A stretch of DNA of 64,000 bases from Marsupella aquatica (taxonomy: Eukaryota > Plantae > Marchantiophyta), in assembly GCA_973895155.1 (NCBI GenBank), contig OZ316894.1, positions 16,786,216-16,850,215 on the forward strand, in the 5' to 3' direction. The position numbers were made by a program, and so were the translations under genes. This document shows positions 10,515-64,000 of this stretch, one piece after another. How positions within the stretch are numbered: the stretch's first letter is position 1; each line of letters starts with the position of its first letter. The notes beneath the pieces were generated by a model. That model saw only the letters and a program-made list of their open reading frames with translations. It had not been told where the DNA came from and did no database searches.

Positions 10515-13500
10515 CTAGCCTCTCCGTGAGATACTCTGTTGTCTTCTTACTTTAGAACTGAGCTCCAATACAATGTGATAATCAGAAGGGCGTACAGTGT
10601 TTTTGAAACAGCGGAAGAGAAATTCTGGTAGTAAAGCTGCTACAACCACAAGTAGCTGGGTAAGCCAATAGCTTGGAGACAGCCCTACTGCCTCTATGAG
10701 TTCTTTGTAGGCTGTTGTTGCAAATGAGACTGGCAGGGCCCCATAAATTAGCAAAAACACGTACCAGAGGGCGATGCTGCCCCAGATAGTGACATGATGG
10801 ATCCAAGTGAAGTATCTAATGGCAATGGTGAGCTGAACATTAGGGACCAGGACCAAACATGAGAAAAGAAGGGCACCAAATTCTTGAGTAGATGCCGTCT
10901 CACCACCTTTGCGGAATGGAGCCACCCAGTACAAGGCAGCAGTGAAGAAGAAAATGAGGAGTCCCGTGTACAGGGAGTTAAGGAGCCATATTGCTACCAG
11001 GTACTTGTTGAAAAACTCCTTCCTTTGGCCAGCTCTGTAAAGCTGAGGATACTTCACACACTCTGCTGCAGAGACATCTTGGTCGATAACGCCAACTACA
11101 CAGATGGGTATGGCAGTGAAGAGTGTATTGTAGAATGATGCATACCAGTCATTGTAAAGTGGCTGACCTGAGAAGAAAGTAAATGCATTGCAGCAGAAAG
11201 CGATCCATCCAATAAGGCTGACCTTGTAGAAAAAGTACAATATCTGCAATGCACAAACAAGTTTCATGAGTATGGTACAATTTCTGGAGGATTCAATTGA
11301 ATTCCTATTACAGCCAACGAATAGAGGAAGGTGTCAGCAGATGTTACATCTTAGCCAAACGACGCACACATCTCTTACTACAAACGACCTCGGCATACAT
11401 AACAAAAGTACTCACCATCAGTGAGATGCGACGGTAGGACCAATGACCATGCACGAGGAGCAGGCGTTCCAAAAACCTAAATTGTGCAATCGCATAATCA
11501 CCTGCCATAGCCGCCTGGAGTGCAAAACGAGAAACATAAGATAAATCAAATATTCCACGTCCTACGCCATCGGTCACACAACAGGGAGCATTCGTAGTGA
11601 AGTAGACAAATGAACCAGTTTCTGGGTCTCACAATAAAAGGGGCACAAATGTACATCAAACCAACGTGATCTTTTCAACTACAGGAATGTCCGTGAGAAC
11701 AGATCAAGATGTCCTTCGAAACTGGAAACTTCTTTTGCAATAACGAACACTTACCTGAGCACCTTCCACACCCGTGATACCAACACCCACATTTGCAGCT
11801 TGGATCATGCCCACATCATTGGCACCGTCCCCTATGGCCAGACAAAGCCTGTTCTCTCCCATTCCCTTCCTTACCAACCTTGTAACCTGGGCCTTTTGCC
11901 GGGGTGACACTCGACAGCACAGAATAGAAGTACACTGTTTACAAACCCGAATAAACTCGTCCTGGAGATTATCGTCTTCGAGTACAAAGGCAAGTGAGTA
12001 ACCATCAATCACCAATGCAAATGAGGCCTCTTGATCTCTGGGAGCTGAAGGACTTATTTTTCTGCTTGACAGATTTTGACTGCCAAAGCCATCGAGTTGA
12101 GTATTTTGCTGACGTTTTGCATCCTTTAAAAAGGCTGCCTCCCCATTTTCCTGCCTAGTCATAGATGTGTATTCTTGCAGTTCCTGCTCGGGTTCCCTGT
12201 GACTGGGCCTTCGACTTAATGCACCGAACAGGTTACCAGAGAAGCTCTGAGAGGAATTGTAACCCATAGCACCGTTCTCCTCTGCAGAATCAGGAAATTT
12301 GTCCCCACCCACTTCGTTTCGTATTCTCCCAATCTCCATATTGCCGTCTGACAATTGTTCAGCCACAATATCTTTCAACTCCTGCAATCCAATGAGAAAT
12401 GGTCATATCATTGGAAATTAATTTCTATTAATTCTGACTGACAGATTACTCTGAGATCTACCAGAGCTGTCAAGCAAGGCTCAAAAGAAACGTCAGAAAA
12501 GACAATATGGGTACTACAATACCTACGACTTCCACCTATCCACTATGTCTTCGTTCAAGTTTCCGGACAAAGACTTCATTATGAGGAACACATTTCATCG
12601 TCCCCTGTAATCCAGCAAATGGCTCTGAAGTACCTTGTTTACATCCTCAGAGGACAGATTCTCTCTCTCAGCTCTCTCCTCCACTTCCCGGGCCTCAGAA
12701 CCTTCCAAAGTGATGATAATCTTCTGCATGCCTTTTCGAAGAAGGCTGGCGATGAAAAACCCACAACCACATGTGTTTGTGAGTTACGGATGAATGCAGT
12801 CAAGATTAACAAGAAGGAAATCAGGCAAAAATGGCCGAACATTGATCTATAAGAGGCTGCCGGTGATTCAGTGTCGTCATTGATAAATTAAGATAGTAAA
12901 CTATGATTTGGTTCAGCTTTACCTGCAGGCATAACCAATGTTGATAGCAGTTTCCACCTTATCCCCAGTAAGTACCCAGATGTTAATACCAGCCTGAGCA
13001 AGGTGGTCAATAGTATCAGGAACCCCATCTTGCAACTTATCCTCCACTCCAGTTCCTCCTACAATCAGAAGATTCCTTTCAATTTGATCTGCAACTTCCT
13101 CAATTCTTTGTTCTCTCTCTCGACCAATGACACTCCGGGCTTTTACGTATTCAGCTTGCCATTTTTGATACTCTGCTGCATCTAGCTCACGATAGGCCAC
13201 CACAAGTGTCCTCAACCCCACCTCTGCGAATTGCCTCAATTGGTTCATCGTTGATCTCAAATATCTTTGGTTTCCAGGGTCCACTCGCTGAGCCATGACA
13301 GAATCAGCACCCTTGGATAGCAACATTATTCGTCCATCTGGATAGCGGACAATGACAGACATCCGTTTCCGTGCGCTACTGAACTCCAAAACATTCAAAA
13401 GCTCATAACTTTGGTCTCTGTATTCGACCCCTTGTCCAACCGACTCCCTGACGTACACTGTTGACGGCGTTCTCTTATAGAAACAGAAGCCAAACTGCTT

Positions 13501-16156
13501 AGCAGCCACAACAAGCGCTGCCTCATCTGGAGATTCAGCTCGGTAATCCATTGACTGAGGGTCATCAACTTTGCCCTCTGGGATAGCTGTATGGCAAAGA
13601 GCAAGAATCTGGAAAAACAATCTAATCATGTCCGCATTTTCTTCCTTTGTCCAGTTACCCCCTAGAAGTCGAGAGTCAGAAAAATTAAATCCTTTAACTT
13701 CGTAAGGATTAACTCCGGCATCATCCCCGTTCTCTCCTCCGGGACCACCGTCCGACTGTGCACCGTTTCCAAGAGAAAGCCCAAGACGCCGGGCAGCCCT
13801 TTCTACCTCTGTTGTACCCTTCCCATATGGAACTCCTGCTATAGAGCATCGGAAAAAGTCCATTTGGTTGCATGTCAGAGTTCCAGTCTTATCAGATAAG
13901 ATGGTGTCCACTTGCCCCAGCTCCTCGTTCAACCCTGTTGACTTGACCTTTGCCGGTGTGTCAGTACTGGCTTCGTACATTCCCAAATCCTGCATCATGT
14001 AAATTCCTTGGATAACCCGCACAATTTCAAGAGAAACATAAAGTGCGATGGGAATAAGGTAGCCATACAGGATCAGCCCACTCACAGCTGATACAATACC
14101 AGCAACTGCAGCTTTGTTGGGATTGTAATAAGGATCGCTGACATAGGGCACAAGATACCATAGGTCTGGTCCTTCGTGTCTGGTCTTATAACCAAGCACT
14201 GCTCCAGTTGCAACACTCATTACGAGAAGAAGTCCAAACATTGCGTAAATGACTCCGTCCAATGACCTGTCAATGCGGCTCCGTTTGGATGGAGGGGTTG
14301 TGGAATTCTGCATGACCTTCGTATCATGCCCCGTGTACATCACTGCTCCCCATATGCTTCCAGTGTTTTGGAGGCTCGAGTCCCGCAGAAGAAGTTGCGC
14401 AGGACCAAGAGAAAATGATTGCCCATCTTGCATATCTATTTGCCCAGTGAAAGTGTAGAGTGATGCATTGGGTACTTCACATGTCACATCTGCTCGGAAA
14501 CCTTTTAAAGAGGTTTCATTTAAATCCCATGTACACTCCAGAGCTTGTCGAACCTGCCTATCATTACGATACAACAGTTAGAAAGACCCCAACGCGTCTA
14601 TACTAGAAAAACCGTTTTTAAAATCATACAACTCCAACAAGAGTCGTGGAAGAGATAACACAGAACAAAACGCTGGGCAAACTAAGGAAACAGGCCAGTC
14701 ACATAGTAACACGAGGATCGCATCTCGATAATCAAGTACACTGCGAAATAATAATTCTCTACGAGTCGTGTTACAAAATGTTGAATCACCTTCAAGTTTG
14801 TCTCCCCGTCAAGATTCTTAGTCTCCACATAGCAGACACCGTCAGGTCCACTAGAAGCGAGCAGAAGCAAATCTGCAGGAAAGTACTCTCCATCTGACAC
14901 TCGCACTAAATCACCAACATGTAAATCTTTCCACTGTAATGTCTCCAGCCTTTCCCCGTCCAGGAGGACTTGCACAGGAGTGGAGTTGACTTGCGCATCT
15001 CCTCGACCGCGACGGAGGTCTTCCCAAAGTTCACGACCAAGACCGAGAGCAAGGACAAAGCCGAGCGGAAGCACTACACTCACCCACGAGTACGGGCTAA
15101 ATGGCAATATCGACAATATTGCCATGGCTGTAAAGTACCAGTAGGCGGCCCTTCGATACTGTACAAATAGAGACAACGGCAAGAAACTGTACCAAGTGTA
15201 CTTCGTGGTGGAAGTCCTGTTTTTCTTGTACCTGCACGAAACGAACAGGGGAGCACATCTTAGGGAGAACAAATCTGTGTTAAACAGCGACAGTGTCTCG
15301 TGAATCAGCTCCTCGGTCACAGGATTGACGCCAGAGTCGTGCCTACCCAAGAAGACTTGTTGGTTCACGATGCCTTGTGGACAAAGAGAATCTTCCTACC
15401 GACATCCCGCAGCTTTCTAGTGTGGGACTCAACTCACTCTAGAAGGGGGAGAAGGAAAAGGAAAATCTGTTGGCTAGTGAAAGTTGGGATTCCAACATCC
15501 CACAGACGTAAAGTAGCGCAGGCCAACAGAGAGAGCCAGCAAAGCAGTCATCTCCGAGTTCAGCTGGTTGTGATAAACTTCGTAAGAAACTGATCTAATC
15601 GGTGAGCAGTCGGACCCCCGGTTTCACGATTTGTAGACACCGACATAACACTGTGCAACCCTTCAGGATGTGGGCTAGACGGAAGGAATCGACGAGACTC
15701 AGAGGATGCTACTGCAACTGAAGTAAGATGCCATGTGAATCAGAAGGGACATTAGCTCTGCAAATGGCCAGCTTAGATGAGTTCTCCGTAAGCTGTCGAT
15801 AGACTGAAATTCGGCAAGAAAAATAGATCGCAGAAGTCGTGATTGGATCAGCGCTTTGCCCGTCACAGGAGTTGGACCATAATGTACTCTCGTCCAGGAC
15901 AAGATACGTAGGGTTCAGACTCCGAAGAGTAGACAGATGTGGGGGCGAAAAGTTGTTAAATTGTAGATATTGACTACGACTCATCCTAAAACAGGATTGT
16001 GGAAGGAGATAATCACCGGTATAATTCATTGAGCGTGCGGTCATTGATGTGGATGGTGCGGGTTTCGCTGGAGCCGCCATCAGAAACATTCCCAGATGTG
16101 CGTGCACGCCATCCACCACGCCATAGCTTTGTCGCTCGGCGCCTTAAGTTGTCCAT
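10515..16156 (-). CDS. ALA: P4-type ATPase (aminophospholipid flippase, ALA family), 7 coding exons
   Basis: Exons 16156-16017 ([17 protein letters not shown], not in the ORF track), 15231-14790 ([15 protein letters not shown]), 14553-12923 ([53 protein letters not shown]), 12745-12634, 12381-11755 ([18 protein letters not shown]), 11514-11416 ([15 protein letters not shown]), 11243-10515 (TM5-10). Splice phases are compatible. Confidence 0.96.
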
Positions 16157-51018: not shown

Positions 51019-52118
51019 GCCTTAATCCTATGCATAGTTGACTGAGAGTGCAGCGAGTATGTTGAGGTTGCCTACAAACAAAGAAGATGTGGACCACCCT
51101 TTTCTTAGGCTTTTCTCCAGTTTTCCCTTAGCAATTTTTCATGACGCATCTATTTGCTTTCTCCCATTGCGACCGAAGACGTATGTCAGATTCGGATTGC
51201 ATGCAAGACCATGGTAGTGCCTATTATTCCATCGATTGACGGAACCTCTTTTAAAAAGAAATTCGGGTCTGCTGCCAACCCCCTGGGCCCAAGCTCAAAG
51301 TCAGATCCGGTTCATATGGGTCCGGTTCATATGGACAGGGAAATTACGTTCCTTTCTGGGATGGTCAAAAAAAGTACAGGCTCTAAGTCTGAGAAGGTGG
51401 GCTTCCACGACACTGAATTCTCAAGAATATATGGAAGCCGTCACTGAGTGGGCATCCATCCCTTTGTAAGTTCATCGAACCTGAAGTATATCTATGCCTA
51501 GACCTTGACTTTCAACGTTTGATAATGCTCCTCCAGCTAGTGCTCCTGCAGTGCCGCACTACCTTAGCTTTCAATCATCGACATTGGAGGTCTCACAACT
51601 ATTAAACGATCCTGCTCAGCATCATCGTCATCGTGCTTATGAGCTCCCTTTTCATTGTGTATGTCATGCAACAGTGTGATATTGAACTCTCTTGAAAACC
51701 TTTGGTGTGACTCCACTGCATGTTGATCTGAATTCTTTCGCTGAATGGCTGAGCATTTCCCGATGTCGAGTCGGGAGGAGTGGTGAGGAGAGCTTTTTGT
51801 CGGTAAGTGGTTAGTCGGTTCTCTCAATTCGAAAGAAGTCCTGGATCGTGAGGAGGCAGCCTAGTCCGGATTTTGAAGGCATAGAACTCCGAGGAAGAAC
51901 TGATTCGGGTAAAGCCATTCCATGAAGCAATTGTACTTAATATTTTCTGATGTCCATGGTAGTAGCGAGATCGATTTCCAAATGGTATGGCTATATGGAT
52001 ACTGTGGGCAACGTAGACATACGTACAGTAGCAAGCGACTTAGTTCATCTGCGAAGTTCACCTAGCTTTGCTAATATTTTGGTAATCTTTGCCATTGCGT
52101 GCCTGGTCGTACAGATTC

Positions 52119-55100
52119 ATGGAGGCGGTGAAGGAAGTCGTTACTGTCTGCGGTTCAATTCTCGACATTATGTCAAACATTGAGAATGTCAAAGAAGACT
52201 GGTTCACTGTGTCAGTGGAGTATCAAAGTGAAGCGACGATACTCCGCTCAAAGCTTGCGTACTATGAGGAGCAAGTCCGCATCCATCAGCAACCTGTGGA
52301 GAGCACTATGATGAAGACATTAAAGAAAGCCGAATTGGTACTGAAGAGAGCGGAAGCAAGATTGAACAGGTTGGAGAAAGGCGTAAACGTCAACCAATGC
52401 TGTTCCCAATTCTGGTGGTTATATGCAAAAGTGACCTTCACACTTTTCCCGGAAAAGTTAGAAAAGACATTTCAGACGGTGATCCAAGAGCTTGAGAGTG
52501 TCTCAAACAACATCGAGGAGGAAGTGAAATTCTCTGGTCTTATGCTAGAAGCAAGCAAGATTCGAGCCATGCCTACAGTTATCCACAATAATGATAACAA
52601 GTATGTTCCAATAGAAAAATCACAGTCTGCGGTTATCAAAGCAATTGAAGATACTCAGAGCGGGACTCGCATGATATTATTGTATGGTGGTGTAGGGAAA
52701 GGCAAGTCCACCCTAGCCAGATATATCTGTGAGCGCTATGGGCAATTTGGAGAAAAAAGCATCGTCTTTGATCATGTGATTTTTGTGTCGTGTGGTAATT
52801 GTTCCATATCTGATCTTGCCACCAAGCAGTACGAAATTTTGGAGCACCTTTCTCCCACTAGTTTAACTGAGGAAAGTAATTCAAAATCTGGGGAGAATGT
52901 TGGCTCAAAATCTCGAATCGCCAAAGCTCTACATAATGTTTTTTCTGGTAAAAAGATTTTGATGATCTTAGATGGCGTTTCGGATAAACAGTTTCTGTAT
53001 GGAATGTGGAAGGCTGCCAGAGACGGCAAAGATGATAAACTTCTCATCACTTCCCAAAGGTCTAATCTATGTGAAGACATTAAAGATGCCACTGTGCTTA
53101 TTACCATGGAAGATGCTTCCAAAGAGGAAGCGGGAAAGATCCTTGCCTCCCTTGTGGGGCTGGAGAGTAGCAAATTTCCTGAGAATATAAAGGTGAGTTT
53201 CCCTCAAACCAAATCTTAATGTATCACATATTGCAAAGTATATGTCTTGCTCTTTTCTAGTTGTCTCCTCAACGACTTTTTCTTTGGCTCAATGCAGGAA
53301 TATGCAGATAAGATGATAGAAGCAACCGGTGGAAATCCCTTAGCTTTGGCCTGTTTGGCAAGTACATTTTCTTACAAGGCAGATAAAAGGAACAAGAGGG
53401 CTTGGCGAGATGCTTGGATGGAATTATCTGAGTTACTAGACTCTAAAGCTACGAGTATTGTGTTAGACGATGAGAGTGCTACTCCTAGAAGCTTGTGGGG
53501 GGCCATGACACTTTGTCTAGAATCTCTGGAAACCAGGGATGCCAAACGGATACTCTTCTTGATGTATGCATGTAAAGCAGAATCTGTTCCCGAACATGTC
53601 CTTAGACTTTTTTGTGCTGGTATGAAGATGTCAAGCTCTTCATTCACACGATCGACAGATGAATTATGGATGAGAGAACTATTGAAGCGTAAAGCTGATC
53701 CATTGGCATCCAAGATGAATTTGGACCAGGAAGAAACTGAGGACGACTCTCCAGCGTGGTCCCTACAGTCTCTGGTGAAGCTTTATATGGAACGGCATGC
53801 TGTGGGTAAACAGGACGTCAGGGATATGATTGGGGCATTGCTTGGTGATGAAAGTTTTTCACCTGAGTCAATCAGTAGATGCAAGTTGCAGGATTATGAA
53901 TCGGAAATAGTGGGGAATGAAATAGAGATTGTGGAGAGTGACGCAATGAGAATGAGAATCACTCTTTGTGCTCTATACTTTGATGGCTGTCACACTGATC
54001 CAGTTGTGACTCGTGCCATGACTAAGGCTTCCAAAATAGCCAATCTTGTGGATTCTGATGACACCATGACGGATCTAAGGAGGAAAGCTATCGAGCCGTT
54101 GATATGGCTCTTGGACAAGCCTGAAGAGGAGGAGCAATGGACGGAAATGGACAAAGGCCGTGTGAGAAAGGTATTTCCCTTGTCACCTTTGAAGATTAAT
54201 TTGCTTCCCTCGCTGCACGTACCTTAGTTATCTTGAATTCAAATAGAAAATCATCCGAATAATTCTAATACTTCCTCACTCACAAAATCTAGCAGCTCAC
54301 ATGTTTGATATGGAACCGAATGCGTGACAGTGAGTCAGAGTTCGCCATTCTTCAACTATTCTTCGTAAGTAAGTGGAAAACAAACAAATTCAGCTTTCAA
54401 AACGAAATTAAGGCGTTTGATTTCGTTTTTAGCATATGGACGTGTCGTTCATACAAATAATGTTAGCCAGACGAACAAGCTATATGCGAACTGTAAGTAC
54501 GAGGCTTAATAGAAGCATGATTTTTAAGAGTCCTTGGAAAGCCATGTCTCTTCGATCGGTACGTTTTCTGCCTTGATCATGTTTGTTCTGATCCATAATT
54601 ATCACTAAATTTCAATTTGTGGGCATTGTGATTCCCTTTCTTTACAGGTCCTTCTCAACTTCATATGCAACCGGCGGCTAGATAACGACAACATCACTTA
54701 CCTGTTGAAGTTGGCTGCTTGTCCTTCCGCACAGTTGGCCACTCTCTCGGCTATTAGTCATATTTTTTCCATCGAAGAGACGCCTCTGCTCAATGAACAT
54801 ACAATCACCTTTTTGCAATCTGTACTTGACCTTTTGACTTTGACGAAGGCTTTGCAGAGTACTGTGCGACAGGCGGCCTCTAAAACATTGCGTGATGTTT
54901 GTTGGAAGGCTGCATATGACAAATCAGCAATCCTTGTTGGAAACTTTCCGGGTGTTTTTGACGTGCTAGTACACTCACTCGCCATACCCCATTCGAAGTC
55001 GGATGCATTTGCAGAAAATGCAGCTTCAGCTTTGACTGGCTTAGCATTCTCGAACGAATATGAGATCGTACGAGGAATTGTGAACAACGAGGGCCTACTG

Positions 55101-57666
55101 GCCAGTCTTGTGAATTGCTTGTGTCAGCAATCCAAGCCTACCTTACAAAAGGCTGCAGCACACGCTTTGTCAAATCTTACCGGTTCAACAAATAATGCTC
55201 TGAAGTTGAGAGTCGCCAATGCGGAGGGGGCTCTGCTTGGCCTGGTGAATTGCTTGTCACAGAATGGCCACCGTGAATTACAACAACGAGCAGCAGGGGC
55301 GTTGGTAAATATTACCAGTTCTACGGATAATGCTCTGAAGTTGAGAGTTGCCAATGTGGATGGGGCTCTGCTTGGCCTGGTGAATTGTTTGTCACAGAAT
55401 GACCATTGTGAATTACAAGAACTAGCAGCAGGGGTGTTGGCAAATCTTGCCGGTTCGACGGACGATGCTCTGAAGTTGAGAGTCGCCAATGAGTATGGGG
55501 CTCTGGTTGGCCTGGTGAATTGCTTGTCACAGAATGACCACCTTGCTGTACAACGGGTAGCAGCAGGGGCGTTGGCAAACCTTGCCGGTTCGACGGATAA
55601 TGCTCTAAAGTTGAGAGTCGCCAATGAGGAGGGGGCTCTGGTTGGCCTGGTGAATTGCTTATTACAAAATGACCACCGCAATTTACAAAAACAAGCAGCA
55701 GGGGCGTTGGCAAATCTTACTGGTTCTACAGATAATGCTCTGAACTTGAAAGTTGCCAATGTGGAGGGGGCTCTAGTTGGCCTGGTGAATTGTTTCTCAC
55801 AGAATGACCACAGTGATCTCCAACAAGAAGCAGCATGGGCATTGGCAAATCTTGCAAGTTCAATTGACAATGGTCTGAAGTCGAGAGTCGCCAATGCAGA
55901 GGGGGCTCTGGCTTGCCTAGTGAATTGCTTGTCACAGAATGACCACCTTGATTTACAACAACAAGCAGCATGGGCATTGGCAAATCTTGCCGGTTCGTCA
56001 GATAATGCTCTCCAGTTGATAGTTGCCAGTACAGAGGGGGCTTTGGTTGGCTTGGTGAATTGCTTATCACAAAATGCCCACCGCGGATTACAACAACGAG
56101 CTGCAACGGTGTTGGCAAATCTTGCCGGTTCGATGGATAATGCTGTGAAGTTGAGAGTTGCCAGTGCGGAAGGGGCTCTGGTTGGCTTGGTGAATTGCTT
56201 GTCCCAGCATGAGCACCGTGACTTACAACAGCAAGCAGCACAGGCATTGGTAAGTCTTGCCGGTTCGACGGATAATGCTCTAAAGTGGAGAGTTGCCAAT
56301 GAGGAGGGGGCTCTGGTTGGCTTGGTGAATTGTTTGTCACAGAATGACCATTGTGAATTACAACAACTAGCAGCAGGGGTGTTGACAAATCTTGCCGATT
56401 CGACAGACAATGCTCTTCAGTTGAGAGTCGCAAATGAGGACGGGGCTTTGGTTGGCCTGGTGAAGTGCTTGTCACAGAATGACCACCGTGATTTACAAAA
56501 CCAAGCAGCAGGGGCGTTGGCAAATCTTACCGGTTCGACGGATAGTACTTTGCAGTTGAGAGTTGCCAAGGAGGAGGGGGCTCTGGTTGGCCTGGTGAAT
56601 TGCCTATCACAGAATGACCATCATGATTTACAAAAACGAGCAGCAGGGGCGTTGGCAAATCTTGCCAGTTCGACGGATAGTGCTCTGCAGTTGAGAGTCG
56701 CCAAGGAGAAGGGGGCTCTGGTTGGCCTGGTGAATTGCTTGTCACAAAATGACCACCATGATTTACAAAGAGAGGCAGCAAGAATGACATCAAATCTAGC
56801 TCGAGCACCAGGGGCAATTGCGATCCTCAGAGAAACGGAAGGTCTATTGGAGGGGCTTACAAGCTTGGTGGGAGATGACATGAGTCCGGATACTCGATAT
56901 GCAGGAGTGGAAGGATTGCTTAAGGTCGACCCGACACTAGCGAAGCAACTAGGCTTGCTCTCCGTACAACTTGATTCCTCTTTGTTAAGGTACCTAAATT
57001 GATCACTGGTATCGATCCTACGCAACTCTTTTTGTGTAATGCTAAATGTGGATAGAAAGATGCGAAGAAGTTGTTCAACTAACAAAATGGACAGTATCAA
57101 AAGAAAATACTTCTGCAGGGCCTAATGAAGCTTAGGAAAATGGATGTGCAGACGCCAAGATTCAATTTGACGTCAAGCTTAGTCACATTGCATTGAATTC
57201 ACTAACATAGCTTTTCTTAAATGTGGCAGTAGCTAAAGTTGCAAAGAAAAGGTGAACAGGTCACTCGATGTGATTTATTTGCAGCATTACTCACGCTCAT
57301 TGTGATGGCAGTTCTAGAATTTTTGTAAAAGCTGAGCTTGGAGATTTTCAAGGGGCACTGGACGATGCGAACGCAGCATTCAACATGCCGGATGCTCCGA
57401 GGGCGTTTGTCTTGCAGGAGCGGGGCGTCTTGAAGCAAAAAATGGGAAATCTAGGGGGTGCCCTGGCAGATTTGGACGAAGGTTTAAATTTAAAGACAAA
57501 CGACTATGAAATGCTGAAGCACCGTGGCTATGTCAAATTCTTGTTAGATGACATGGAAGGAGCTCGCGCAGATGCAGAATGGGCTCTATCACTCGACTCC
57601 TTAAGGGATGATTCAAGTGGCTACTTGGGAGGAACCTGCGCAGAATACTTGGGCTATAGACTGTGA
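52119..57666 (+). CDS. NLR-like STAND protein: N-terminal 4-helix (MLKL/RPW8-like) - NB-ARC - ARM repeat array - TPR, ~1547 aa
   Basis: Exons 52119-53192, 53298-54170, 54648-56989 and 57312-57666 have GT-AG ends and matching phases (0, 0, 2) and total 4644 nt. Motifs: Walker A GGVGKGKST, Walker B ILMILDGVSD, RNBS-B LLITSQ, GLPL-like GGNPLAL, 45-aa ARM repeats, and TPRs RIFVKAELGDFQGALDDANAA, ERGVLKQKMGNLGGALADLD and HRGYVKFLLDDMEGARAD. Confidence 0.85.
55092..56802 (+). repeat. Coding tandem array of 135-bp (45-aa) armadillo repeats, ~12.7 units, within a single exon
   Basis: Consensus GALVGLVNCLSQNDHxxLQxxAAxALANLAGSTDNALKLRVANxE. Units start at 55092, 55227 and every 135 bp up to 56712, with no indels. 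Confidence 0.95.
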
Positions 57667-58857
57667 TTGTGGAGATTGTGTTTGGTAGATATTTGTATGC
57701 CGCGGCTTGTGCATTAATTGTGTGATGGACAGCCAATTTGGGCCACTGGAGATACCTGTCTCCAGCTGAACAGCTTGGACTCTCAGTATTTGCGAAGTAT
57801 TGAGACCCATATATTATTCTATTGTGATGTGAACAATCGTAGTGGAGAGTAGCTGAGTTCGTGATGATGCGGTCACATTCATACAATGCCATTAATTTGA
57901 CCATTCAAGCCACACCTGGATTATTCATGTTGGCCAGATTATTTCCAAGTGCGGACAACCATCCAACTTCAAGACCCGTTCGCATTATTGCGTGACCGAA
58001 ATCATTGTTGGAATCTCGTGGGGTATCTTTAGCGTAGATGTTATGCATGAAGGAAACGTCAGTTTGATGATCGAGAATCATCTTCAAGCCTGTAGACAAT
58101 TTTTTGGTGACATTAATTTTGTATGCCTCGTCCTTATTAATTGAGTAGCGTCAATCACGAAGCGGAATCTCCGAGTCCAGGCAGCAAGTTCAAGTCTCGC
58201 ACTTGGAACACGAATTTCAGCTACATGCCCCGAACAATACAATTCACATTCAGCCTGAGTCAGCAATTCTGCGCATCCCATATATGCACAGGTCCCGTAC
58301 AGGTACCACACCTAGAGACACCAATTAATCCGGAAAATAACACCGTTAGCCAGGCTAAAGTAATCTTGAGGACATCACTTTTTCATTTTGTTTAGAGGCT
58401 TCTTGAAAAGAAGATTCTGCCCAAACGATTCCTACTTAGTCGTGTCTAATCAATTTTATTCCATTTGGGGTTTTGGTACATCCTGAACGATGATAGATGA
58501 GACAAGTTTGACTTTTTCTTCCATTTTCCTTCTAGATCCTATCCTAAGTGAATACTACTCAGTCACGTAGTGAAATAGGAAGTCTTATAGCACTTTGCGA
58601 AGAGATGAACCTATTATCCTCATTGAGCTCTAACCTATATTCTGGAACGACCCACACAACTAGTCCAGCCCATATGTACAAACCAGCCCAGTTCAGTGAT
58701 CATCTTGGGGAGGCTTCATTTGGCAGTTGAGATCTACTGTAGAAATGAAAGTAACACAGGAATGGGATGGATAGGAACAAACACCCTAAAATCGTAACCA
58801 GGGGCGAGCAGTGCTTGTTTCTCTCAAAAAGCTACCACAAGTTTAAGAACATGAACC

Positions 58858-59040
58858 CAAACTTTTCAATCAAATTATTGCAACAAATATATTGAGCCAC
58901 TGAAATCGACACCAAATTGAACCTTTTTTATCAAAAAGCTGCAAGAAAATTTTTGAGCCACTGACATCGATACAAAATTTCAACTTTTGATCAAAAAGTT
59001 GCAAGAACTATTTTGATCCACCGAAATCGATGCCAAGTTT
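58858..59040. repeat. ~60-bp tandem repeat, 3 copies
   Basis: actttt..atcaaa....tgcaa.aa....ttga.ccac.ga.atcga...caa.tt occurs three times. Confidence 0.75.
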
Positions 59041-59486: not shown

Positions 59487-61426
59487 TCAAAGCGAAACCC
59501 CTACAGGTGGCTTCTCTTCTACCTGTGACTTGGTTACGGTTGCCTTCGGTGCTTCTGCGGATTGAGAAACCTTCGATTCCTCTATTGTGTCACTAGTTTG
59601 TGTCAAAGGCAGCCCCGCAACCTCCCGAAGAGGCTTCCACCTGTAAGATCGCCTGCGCGATTCAAAGAACAGAACATCAGGGGACAGATGAGAAGTAGTA
59701 AACATCGTCATGGGAGGCCAGACTGACAATACTTGCGGTCTTTGAAAGGAGTAGAGACGCAAGTTTTGAAAAGTAAGATGCCATACAGAACTATTGTCAA
59801 AAGGAGACCAGGAGATGCGCAAAGCTTACCACATTAAAACATAAAACCTACAATGACGATATTTGACGATTTATAATAGTAATAAATGAGGCACTCCGAA
59901 CCCAACTAAATGAGAATTTCAAAGAATGTGCAGAATCAAGAATGCCTCTGCTGCATCGATTGACTCAAAAAATTGGCTACCTATGTGTACATTTTGCGAC
60001 CTGACTCCAATGGCATAGACAGACCCCAATTCAACCATTTCAGTTACCGAGCCCCTACCAGGTGCCACACTCAGCAATAACTTTGACTTTCTTCCGCAAG
60101 GCTGGCAACAGAGCCAAATACTGTAATTCCGTCTTTGACAGTACCTGTTACATGCATGAAAACTTCTTAAAATTTAAAAACCTCGCCATGCCAGCGATAC
60201 TCACATCAGTGAACTCAAGTTCTGAATCACTTCACCAAATTCTTGCTTCTAAAAATGAGAACGAGGACATACAATGAGTACCTTTGCTTCAATGACCCAC
60301 AGAACAAGTCCCTTGGAATCTTCAGGCAGAGCAGAGAGCCTGTGATCCAACTCTGGCGGGTAATAAAAGCATTCTATTGCCTGTTTACCTAAATGGGCCT
60401 GCATATCCAGCTACCAGTGTCAGTACTGCGTTTCTTGTTTATAATTGAATGACTGAACAAATGTTTTCCAGGTCAAGCCCCTTGTCTTAATAGTGTAGAG
60501 GTACTTGACCTCCCAACCCCTCGCTTTATTGGAGCACTTCAACCTTTTGGTAAGCAGAAACTTAGTTTTCAAGGATATGGACACAAGGTGCACTCGCTCT
60601 AGACCCACGATCATTGGGGAAGGAGAAAAGGATACCAACCACAAACTGAAATTAGAGAGACAAGAACTAATGAATCTAATTAGTCATGGTTGGACGTGGA
60701 GCTTGACTCGGCTCACGGATTGATGCATGTAGAACAAACTTCAACCAAACCCGTGCATGTTACTTGCTCACATACAGTGATGGCAGATTCAGCTCGGAAT
60801 CCCCTCTCAGAATAAATACAGAGCGATGACTGCTACAACCCATAATTGCAAGAATTGCAAAATGACTTCAGGCACACCTCCACCATATGGAAAAGACTGT
60901 GTCACGTCGTGTAGAAAGAGCCAGAGCAGCTAGAGCAGCTAGAGCAGATAGAGAGAGAACGTACCGGTCGCACGCCATGGATTTTGGTGAGATAAGCCTC
61001 TGGGTCACCCAAGCCACGAGCCGTTATATTCATAAAGTGATAACCCTCCGACTTCAGGCGATTAGCATACCGCCCCTCGTAACCTCCCTCGGCGGGAGCA
61101 TAGACTGCAATCGACCCGTAGTCTTCCACATCCTTATACCACTGGTCCAGGTCGAATCCCAACAAGTCTCCTCCCCAGAAATCTGCGAGGCCAGCAGAAA
61201 CCACAGTAGTGCTCCCCTGCCTCTCAGCTCTGAGATTAGACGACGACGGGCAGCTACTCACACTACTTACGCTTCTTCCCCGCCAGAGCACAGGGGAGGA
61301 GAGCAGCCGGGTCGGAGGCAGAGACGGTGCTGCTGCATTGGTGCTTTGACATCTAGGAGAGGAATTGAAGGTGGCTGTGGACGGAGTGTAGCAACATCGA
61401 GCAGGGTAGACACTAATCACATTCAT
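59487..61426 (-). CDS. ndhN: Plastid NDH complex subunit N (nuclear-encoded, with transit peptide), 4 exons
   Basis: Exons 61426-60965 (Ser-rich transit; AVYAPAEGGYEGRYANRL..TARGLGDPEAYLTKIHGVRP), 60398-60282 (AHLGKQ..PPELDHRL..KGLVLWVIEAK), 60144-60059 (VLSKTELQYLALLP..IAECG) and 59652-59487 (RSYRWKPL). These are diagnostic NdhN motifs. Confidence 0.95.
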
Positions 61427-63112
61427 CGTTGGTACGTGGTCAGGCTAAATGTGCGCAAAGACTTCAATGGACTTACCACAGAGAGCAGAGAGCTGGTAGA
61501 GACCGATCATATCCACACTCTGAGGATGGCAATTGCAGTGACAGTGTACAACTGAGGAAACTTCGAAAGGCTTGAAGCACGAATGACCTCGAGGTCTTGT
61601 GTGTACGAGAAGAACATGGCCAAAATTCTGATGTGGGGGTGTGAGAGCGGAAGCTGGGCTACGATATCTTTTCGACTCTTGGTCGAAATGGGAGTCGAAA
61701 TGGGAGTCGAATTTGTGTCCACTATTTGAACCTCAGTGTTGTTACCGAGCGCTTGGCCATGGATCAGCAGGGCCATTATCAGCCAATGATCACAAAGCAA
61801 ACATGAACTACAGCGGGACTACAGCACAATCATGGGGCCCGTTTATCTGCTGTAAAGTTGTCCATTTGTCCAAACCGAAAAGTAATCGATAGGGCCTCTC
61901 AAAGCTTAAAATTTGATGGACCTTAAGGGCTAGGTTCCATGAAGTAGGGATTTGTACGGATGGGGAGTAAGGGTGCACGCAGGGCCCACCACCACAAATT
62001 TGGGGGCAGGGGTATTCTCGGGCCCATGCACTCCCTGCGGAGCAATCCGCGCCCCACTCTCCGGTACCAATTCTCACAAATGAAACCGGCTGTTCACAAA
62101 CGATGTTGCTGTGAAGCTCCAAAAACCTGCCCACAAACAAAGCTCACAAGAAGTCTCCAAGCTTTGACTAGATCGATATCTGGGAAGGCTGTGAACTATG
62201 GATCGGATCATAGCTCGGAGCATTGGGGCATTGCGAGCGGAGAATTAGGAATCTTGATGCTTGACATTTGCAATGGGAATACACCACAGGCAGGCAGCAG
62301 ACGAGTGGGCCGGCATTAGAATTTGAGTGTTTGACAGATTCAAAGAGCTATGGAATGGGAGTTGAGCTAAAAGACTTGTGTGACTCGCGCTGTTCTCCTC
62401 ATTGTACGCACCTCATTATCTGTGACTCCGTTCGAATGAAATTGTCCATTCTGCCCTTGTGAGTCCTGACTTGTGGAAGCTTTGACCTGAGTGAGTGACT
62501 GAGTGACTGAGTTGTGAAGCTTCGAGTGTGTGAGAGAGCGCCAGGACAAGGCTCTGGGATTTCAGGAACGGGTCATGTGAATCGTCCACTTCAGGTAGTA
62601 ATCTGCTAGAGATGTCCAAAGGCGGCCCACTTTGTCCGTGACCTCCGAATTCCACCTCAAATGATCGCACTACCATTAGGTAAGCACAAGGAGGAGCGAC
62701 AATACTTCCTTTTGAAGCACAGACTACTATAGGATTCAATCCGTGTATCTTACTGCACGAAGATACTTCACAGATCCATGTCACATCTCTTCATCACACG
62801 AGGGCTCGCTTGGGTCCAGATTGACAGGAAACAAGATTTTTGGCAGCAACGCTTGCAATTTTGAACTGCTCAAATCGAAGTATTCAGAGCAGGAGATTGG
62901 AAATCTATTTCTTCTGCACCCAAAGCAGAGGCAACATGGGACTCCAGCCACTGAAAAATCAAGTCGTTTGCCACACTCGTGATCGAGTGCATGGCATATG
63001 CCATCAGTAGTTCCTGCGACACATAATCTATAAGGCAAAGATGCCCAGTCGCCGCACAGTAGGGCAACGCATTTGCCTTCAACAACACGGATTCTAAGTC
63101 GCACTCGAATGA

Positions 63113-63211: not shown

Positions 63212-63389
63212 AGCATCACTTTCTCAGTTTGCTCCTGTTGTCGAGTGTTCAAAGATTAGAGTAGCTGCATCAGAGAAAGGAAGTTCTCTTACCAGATGTG
63301 GCCATAGCTTTGAGAATTGAGAACTTTCATCATGGAAGGAGATCCCATGGACATAGATTTCAATGTAACTCCTTCATCTCAAGAGCCAA

Positions 63390-64000
63390 ATGTTCACTCA
63401 GTTAATAGTTGATGTCCATAGGGTTCGTCAATTTCCTCACAGAGACATTAACATAAATTTGCTAGTGAGGGTAGTAGCTTCTTTGATGGCAGCGCTTGCC
63501 TCTGTCACACAGTCATTGTTGCCTATGACTGATGCCACAAATCTAGTGCTCCATCTCTCAAATCTAAGTAGAGCTCATGTGGGTAGAGATGCACTTGTTT
63601 GTCACCTGATTCCAACATTTTTGCACCTTGTTGGAATTGCTTATGTGCGTCCAAGGGAAATTATCGATCAGTGGTACATAAAACCACGAACCAGGCATCG
63701 TTTGATGCTTTGGATGGACGACACACCACTTGAGGACCCACAGTGCTTCAGAGAATTTTTTCAAATTGGTCCTGAGCTCTTTTTTTATGTATGCGAGCTA
63801 GTTCATGATGACATGCTTACAGATCCTCCAGAGTCTCTATGGATATTGCCAAACCGCAAGCTTATTGTGATCAGGCAAGTGGCTCTTGCCTTGAGACGGT
63901 TGGCAGTGGGAGATACCTTCCTAACTCTAGGAGAACTATTTGGTGTTTCGAAAAGCACAGCAATTAAGGTCACATGGAAGTTCATCTGTGCACTTCGAAT
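63390..64000 (+). mobile_element. PIF/Harbinger transposase-like (HARBI1/ALP1-like) ORF, truncated by the window edge
   Basis: The frame is open from ATG 63390 to the end and is absent from the ORF track: WYIKPR..FREFFQIGPELFFYVCELV..RQVALALRRLAVGDTFLTLGELFGVSKSTAIKVTWKFICAL, the helix-turn-helix region typical of Harbinger transposases. The DDE domain lies outside the window. Confidence 0.85.

Follow-up and report, generated by a model that had tools for sequence, protein, structure and literature searches.

A patch shared by two non-adjacent armadillo units points to a probable past out-of-register exchange in a likely liverwort immune receptor gene

In a 64,000-nucleotide stretch of contig OZ316894.1 from Marsupella aquatica (the whole stretch analyzed, hereafter the window), we found a gene for a likely immune receptor whose armadillo domain is a tandem array of 135-bp units. 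Two of these units, U2 and U9, lie seven units (945 bp) apart and share a patch of nearly identical sequence. We read this patch as the product of one past out-of-register, conversion-like exchange, to which we assign somewhat better than even odds (a probability of about 0.55). A single exchange is preferred over a history of block duplication because U2 and U9 are too alike for the latter and because their likeness is concentrated in the patch.

The gene and its armadillo array

A four-exon model with GT-AG introns, of which the one preceding exon 2 measures 105 bp, gives an open frame of 1545 residues with NB-ARC, armadillo, and TPR domains (Table 1). Tandem Repeats Finder places the repeat at positions 55167-56768, with a period of 135, 11.9 copies, 83% matches, and 0% indels. 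In the codon frame, U0 starts at 55092, U1 at 55227, U11 at 56577, and U12 at 56712, with the full units U1-U11 occupying 55227-56711. An earlier reading of this DNA from the sequence alone had described the array as free of introns and indels, and this is borne out by the constant period and by its position wholly inside one exon. Typical pairs of units differ at about 24 of the 135 bases (~18%); the mean identity of a unit to the consensus is 0.83 by our own Psim-like measure, which is not that of T-REKS, and the best 100-aa self-identity of the protein is 0.82. Transitions at CG sites are 3.8 times as common as at CHH sites.

Table 1. Features of the NB-ARC/armadillo/TPR gene (window coordinates)
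Feature	Position	Strand	Basis
Exon 1: N-terminal helical (coiled-coil-like) domain and first part of NB-ARC	52119..53192	+	gene model; Pfam NB-ARC E=2.6e-12
Exon 2: remaining NB-ARC and helical linker	53298..54170	+	motifs aligned to paralogs
Exon 3: contains the entire armadillo array	54648..56989	+	gene model; Pfam Arm E=1e-52
Armadillo units of 135 bp (45 aa) in tandem, with U0 divergent, U1-U11 full, and U12 partial	55092..56768	+	Tandem Repeats Finder and unit table
Patch in U2, common to U9; helix 2 to helix 3, with predicted pocket codons 20, 21, and 24	55378..55439	+	
Patch in U9, common to U2	56323..56384	+	61/62 identical to 55378-55439
Exon 4: TPR domain and stop	57318..57666	+	Pfam TPR_9 E=4.5e-7, under the curated cut-off

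The NB-ARC portion retains an intact P-loop in exon 1 and a GLPL-like motif in exon 2. The second Asp of the Walker B motif (exon 1, about residue 285) is replaced by Gly; among the relatives, designated by P numbers here and below, the same position holds Asp in P0001, P0002, P0005, and P0070 and Lys in P0003 and P0004. The Gly may weaken the ATPase activity of this copy, and changes of this kind may mark ATPase-weak members of the family. The alignment to paralogs places no canonical MHD motif at the expected site, and Pfam detects no LRR in the gene, finding Arm and TPR instead. Hence, the gene departs from the canonical plant NLR, which has a C-terminal LRR and a P-loop, Walker B, and MHD that are all intact. 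The N-terminal domain has no matching Pfam family; residues 2-146 are all-helical in a low-confidence structural model (pLDDT 54), the best Foldseek matches of which are CC-NLR resistosomes at TM scores of 0.35-0.39. The window holds an intact NB-ARC/armadillo/TPR gene that likely encodes a liverwort immune receptor.

Elsewhere in the window, we observed a multi-exon P-type ATPase gene (10515-15395, minus strand), whose motifs make it a likely phospholipid flippase, and an exon of nuclear NdhN (60902-61444, minus strand), a plant marker. An open frame at 63369-63998 (plus strand) runs past the end of the window and resembles by eye a fragment of a Harbinger-type transposase; it has no Pfam match at E<=0.001. 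About 1.2 kb downstream of the NB-ARC/armadillo/TPR gene lies a noncoding tandem repeat (58859-59031) with about three copies of a 60-61-bp unit.

The U2/U9 patch and its possible origins

The sequence-only reading had pointed to mosaic sharing in four pairs of units and had taken it as a sign of shuffling or gene conversion that is actively reassorting the array. For the units starting at 55362 (U2) and 56307 (U9), the sharing is well founded: they match at 61 of 62 bases across the patch and share eight minority bases, four of them synonymous, whereas a column shuffle produces a maximum of at least eight such bases with a probability of only 0.003. Since this shuffle keeps the base frequencies of each column, mutation hotspots are allowed for in that value. 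The two units differ at 12 of 135 bases, one inside the patch and 11 outside it; over the same region, other pairs of units show a mean of 10.8 differences and a minimum of 6. A 41-base core of the patch occurs exactly twice in the window, and the two synonymous minority bases that U2 and U9 share inside the patch are each present in 3 of the 11 units. Around the patch, the affinities of the two units diverge: the 5' variant of U2 is common to U1, that of U9 is common to U7 and U8, and the 3' variant of U9 is common to U6, U10, and U11. The probability of one mismatch or fewer in any 62-nt window is about 0.04 in the column shuffle, and the shape of the patch alone, judged by a scan statistic, gives p=0.06.

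U2/U9 is the only one of the four pairs whose sharing exceeds chance. The peptides quoted for the pairs 4/10, 5/6, and 10/11 are indeed present, but the column shuffle accounts for what these units share (two, four, and four minority bases, respectively), as the best pair reaches at least four in 98% of shuffles; furthermore, 5/6 and 10/11 are adjacent and so lend no support to non-adjacent exchange. Mosaicism across the array was not detected by the PHI test (p=0.06-0.29 over five window sizes), the proposed GENECONV check, run as a GENECONV-like test, was not significant (best global p=0.58), and sharing between neighboring units was not above chance (p=0.25, or 0.12 with U2/U9 damped). With CG sites mutating at 3.8 times the rate of CHH sites, homoplasy explains the scattered sharing, including that of the other three pairs.

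The same bias makes homoplasy a real force and raises the question of whether the patch itself might be a product of chance, through recurrent and convergent mutation on a star-like tree of units, or of an assembly error in which a repeat was collapsed or swapped. The shuffle that preserves hotspots still yields p=0.003, and the frame is open over all 1545 codons. With respect to assembly, the identical 41-base core is unbridged among the contigs listed, which is expected because those contigs were built from 31-base words, whereas the sequence on either side of each copy of the patch is present in contigs: exact pieces from three sequencing runs (X1-X3) include the two sides of the U2 copy and, for the U9 copy, the left side, and a piece from a fourth (X4), with three differences, covers 56334-56495. 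We therefore regard chance or error as a very improbable source of the patch.

A more serious question is posed by the duplication history of the array. The best history of adjacent single-unit duplications (among 16,796 trees) takes 135 parsimony steps versus 127 for a free tree, in which U2 and U9 group with 88% bootstrap support. In a parametric bootstrap, simulated under the best-likelihood tree from the 60 top ordered adjacent-duplication trees, the gap in steps is reached in 5 of 400 replicates (p=0.0125) and the eight shared bases in 0 of 400. Sequential adjacent duplication, which would have been a full alternative to shuffling, is thus disfavored by simulation, although the AU test does not reject such trees (p up to 0.18). 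When multi-unit duplications are allowed (298,648 trees enumerated), the best tree requires 129 steps, only two above the free tree, and each of the 14 valid duplication trees of 129-130 steps pairs U2 with U9 as sisters. Block duplication without conversion could account for this if an early two-unit block doubled, making U2 and U9 sisters, and the unit between them then expanded to U3-U8, with deletions allowed. Such a history would also suit the two synonymous minority bases that U2 and U9 share outside the patch, and blocks of two and three units are plainly used in the paralogs. However, it demands that U3-U8, which differ from one another at a mean of 25.5 bases (minimum 19), be younger than U2 and U9, which differ at 12; put otherwise, U2/U9 would have to be as old as pairs differing by 23 (Poisson p=0.002-0.008, for a tree picked after the fact). 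A single seven-unit block was also considered and rejected, for the pairs 1/8, 3/10, and 4/11 share only one, zero, and two minority bases. We accordingly consider block duplication without conversion the main alternative to the conversion-like exchange, though an unlikely one. In sum, either a non-adjacent exchange or a block duplication is supported for one pair of units, and the preferred exchange would belong to the past.

The proposal that units are being actively reassorted in this gene finds no such backing. If shuffling were ongoing, the number and order of units would be polymorphic among individuals today, as in fungal het-e/het-d. Six sequencing runs contain the stretch, four of them (X1-X4, from two studies) with more than half of its words, and one is possibly the window's own source. 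Among the contig pieces listed from X1-X4 at 97% likeness (32 of about 327, short, with none spanning the array), no joint or indel lies in the array. X3, which comes from the second study and bears another organism label, is identical to the window over 55378-55513 and 55921-56201. A copy diverging by about 2% (X3/X4), which may be an allele, a homoeolog, or a close paralog, keeps the U6-U7, U7-U8, and U9-U10 adjacencies as well as the U9 patch from 56334 onward; as it keeps that patch, the patch predates the split between the two copies. Together with units that stand ~18% apart, these observations speak against active reassortment. Contigs at 90% likeness do show six joints inside the array and, besides these, one back-joint in an exact nine-unit register, but their sides span only 27-46 bases and they fit paralogs equally well. 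We read them as units of paralogs in view of these short sides and of the close paralogs detected over the NB-ARC part: contigs that are 90-97% alike over the NB-ARC exons (52000-57800, X1-X4) reveal one or more close paralogs located outside the window. Both an exact version and a 14-difference version of 57081-57279 also occur in X3. A hint in the opposite direction comes from the divergent copy, in which 6 of the 10 differences other than returns to the majority base match a base found in another unit (p about 0.07), and from the near-perfect triplets of the paralog P0055 described below. On balance, ongoing shuffling in this gene appears quite unlikely. Micro-conversion between alleles was likewise considered, as all six G>A differences fall at columns with A elsewhere (naive p=0.006), and is not claimed, since p rises to 0.08 once sequence context is taken into account and the contigs are restricted to long ones. 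In X1, four depth bins are empty; they have no evidential value, the records having been filtered.

The paralog family and the predicted binding groove

The single patch would by itself be ordinary behavior for a tandem repeat; the pattern across the family is a stronger signal and merits follow-up. Two word-based searches recovered Calypogeia fissa proteins exclusively (5/5 and 7/7 matches), the best of these relatives being 56% identical over its length. A HMMER search gave 61 representative matches, and the 20 for which names were retrieved comprise seven from C. fissa, three from Marchantia paleacea, six from Riccia, one legume NLR, one from a green alga, and two unnamed entries. With the repeat exon alone as the query, a search of 7,999 candidates (430-1371 aa) yielded no homolog at E<=0.001. 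In an NB-ARC tree of 25 rows, including only one canonical NLR, the window gene falls in a clade of seven with Calypogeia proteins (support 100/99), and the tree shows an open fork where this clade would join the P0052/P0070 group. P0002 and P0005 combine the NB-ARC/ARM/TPR body with a longer, different N-terminus that by eye resembles an alpha/beta-hydrolase, which suggests possible swapping of N-terminal domains within the family.

The units of the window are 72% alike among themselves versus 47% (at most 56%) to those of P0001, even though the non-repeat parts of the two proteins are 62% identical. This is the pattern of repeats evolving in concert inside a single gene, and homogenization and expansion from one unit per gene both yield it. 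Between P0001 and P0002, units are 79% alike across genes, as are their NB-ARC regions (79%). Among relatives longer than 500 aa, 8 of 34 show a 90-residue self-identity of at least 0.7 (seven from C. fissa and one from M. paleacea), and this value exceeds 0.9 over 90 aa in P0002, P0003, P0006, P0037, and P0055. Several of these arrays are organized in blocks: P0003 and P0004 alternate two types of units, P0037 of M. paleacea has a period of 91 that likewise reflects a two-unit block, and in P0006 a block of three units occurs five times. P0055 (C. fissa, CAM6117780.1) has twelve 43-aa HEAT/ARM units at residues 900-1441, comprising three near-perfect triplets with 0-1 differences. Blocks in the paralogs, as given in database protein sequences, are up to 100% identical; P0055 is the best candidate for a block duplication of very recent date, unless it is an artifact of assembly. 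Beside some of these, the array in the window, with units ~18% apart, looks older and quieter.

In the window gene, P0001, and P0002, unit positions 21 and 24 both rank within the seven most variable, and the entropy profiles of these three correlate (rho 0.34-0.41, p 0.005-0.02). The column with the most variation in P0055 directly precedes the same helix-3 Ala-Ala. The best solved-structure match of the repeats is the designed armadillo protein OR497 (E=1.5e-38). When the units are aligned with designed armadillo proteins, codon 24 falls on a helix-3 Trp, which we take to be residue 33, and codon 21 falls on a helix-3 Glu. Residues 29, 30, and 33 of such proteins form a specificity pocket, as given in the available portion of PMC11228518. 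In codon models of the 11 window units, omega is 0.65 overall, and site models find no significant class under positive selection (M2a vs M1a, p=0.63). For codons 20, 21, and 24, omega reaches 2.6 (p=0.005 vs 1), the set being partly post hoc and recombination being ignored, and for a wider set of eight groove sites it is 1.0. The case for positive selection at the putative pocket codons is therefore suggestive only. That the units are "sensor modules," as the sequence-only reading called them, is an inference from the architecture and from the location of the variable residues.

These features allow a mechanism to be sketched. Misaligned pairing of the 135-bp units would result in unequal crossing-over and conversion, and these would renew the array of each gene; groove residues of helix 3, at unit codons 20, 21, and 24, would diversify during that renewal. 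The armadillo groove would read a peptide-like ligand and thereby turn on a cell-death output from the NB-ARC and N-terminal helical domain. In its most extended form, the scheme would give liverworts an immune repertoire that is modular, driven by recombination, and carried by an armadillo scaffold, with the pocket of each unit reading one part of an extended peptide; we offer it tentatively and consider it rather unlikely. If it were true, near-identical repeats would be kept so that unequal exchange can reorder units, alleles would vary in the number and order of their units, and there would be a readable residue code. Nature would then have its own equivalent of the designed modular armadillo binders, and plants an equivalent of the HET-E-type shuffling of fungi. 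Since recognition of peptides by armadillo repeats is modular and well mapped, the variable residues lend themselves to direct, testable predictions of ligands.

Comparison with known systems

The closest architectural precedent is found in liverworts themselves. Marchantia polymorpha Mapoly0095s0062 (MARPO_0095s0062, also MpNBS-LRR15; P0070) is listed as the NHAT type of resistance gene and was among five genes overexpressed in Nicotiana for cell-death symptoms, according to the accessible part of PMC12513842. The window gene has the same set of NB-ARC, Arm/HEAT, and TPR domains, that is, an NB-ARC followed by HEAT/ARM and TPR, with the definition of the type being read from this gene in the same partial source. 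Across 696 aa in the N-terminal half, the two proteins are 26% identical (E=1e-32), and at the TPR end their identity is 49%. They differ in the state of their repeats: those of the Marchantia NHAT type have diverged with insertions (the best self-identity of the M. paleacea cluster mate P0052 is 0.57), whereas those of the window are indel-free and 83% alike to their consensus.

NB-ARC proteins with ARM repeats are known more widely, as indicated by the portions consulted of PMC10030324, PMC12512272, and PMC9825502. The CC-NB-ARM protein RLS1 of rice, which has been linked to cell death, likewise combines an N-terminal helical domain and an NB-ARC with ARM repeats in place of the LRR (PMC10030324 and PMC12512272, in part). 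Unlike the window gene, however, it has three ARM motifs in 1040 aa, with no TPR described in those portions, and no RLS1-named protein occurs among the named relatives (20 of the 61 HMMER matches). Designed armadillo proteins and importin-alpha furnish the best solved-structure matches, and the helix-3 pattern aligns with theirs, including the Asn and Trp positions, but their unit is 42 aa rather than 45 aa. Because most units of the window have Gly at the Trp position, the same kind of peptide binding is not assured.

The most instructive parallel lies with the fungal NLRs carrying repeats of high internal conservation (HIC), such as Podospora HNWD and the NB-ARC-TPR and NACHT-ANK proteins, in which homogenized repeats with a variable binding face are an accepted path to rapid receptor diversity. 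As described in the available text of PMC4986451 and PMC13449251, they too combine a STAND ATPase with near-identical repeats whose consensus is specific to the gene, whose variable residues lie on the predicted concave face, and which show sharing between non-adjacent units. In common with them, the window gene joins a STAND ATPase to superstructure-forming repeats (NB-ARC and Arm). Its 0.83, by our own Psim-like measure, lies above the Psim threshold of 0.70 given in the part of PMC13449251 at hand, whereas its self-identity of 0.82 falls short of the >85% over 100 aa given in that of PMC4986451. The latter source, in the same part, records highly conserved repeats as rare in plants (0.4% in one survey). 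A 2026 cross-taxon survey (PMC13449251, in part) reports HIC NLRs in plants too, covering repeats of the ANK, TPR, WD40, and LRR classes and excluding the HEAT type, and the sections of PMC11218826 and PMC11906373 that were available contain no mention of armadillo. Our literature search found no account of plant NB-ARC genes whose armadillo arrays are both internally conserved and block-duplicated, and the supplement of PMC12513842 may contain one.

What distinguishes the present family from the fungal systems is thus its armadillo scaffold and its occurrence in a land plant. The NLR-like context proposed from the sequence alone is sustained, and the likeness to fungal NLR repeat domains that was proposed with it fits the family, with its block repeats and gene-specific consensus, better than it fits the window gene. 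If this liverwort NB-ARC family does diversify its receptors through armadillo repeats, it would represent an independent arrival at the same design. The best reading of these comparisons is a turnover of repeats of the kind seen in fungal HIC NLRs, operating on a plant armadillo scaffold and leaving the trace of one old exchange in the window gene.
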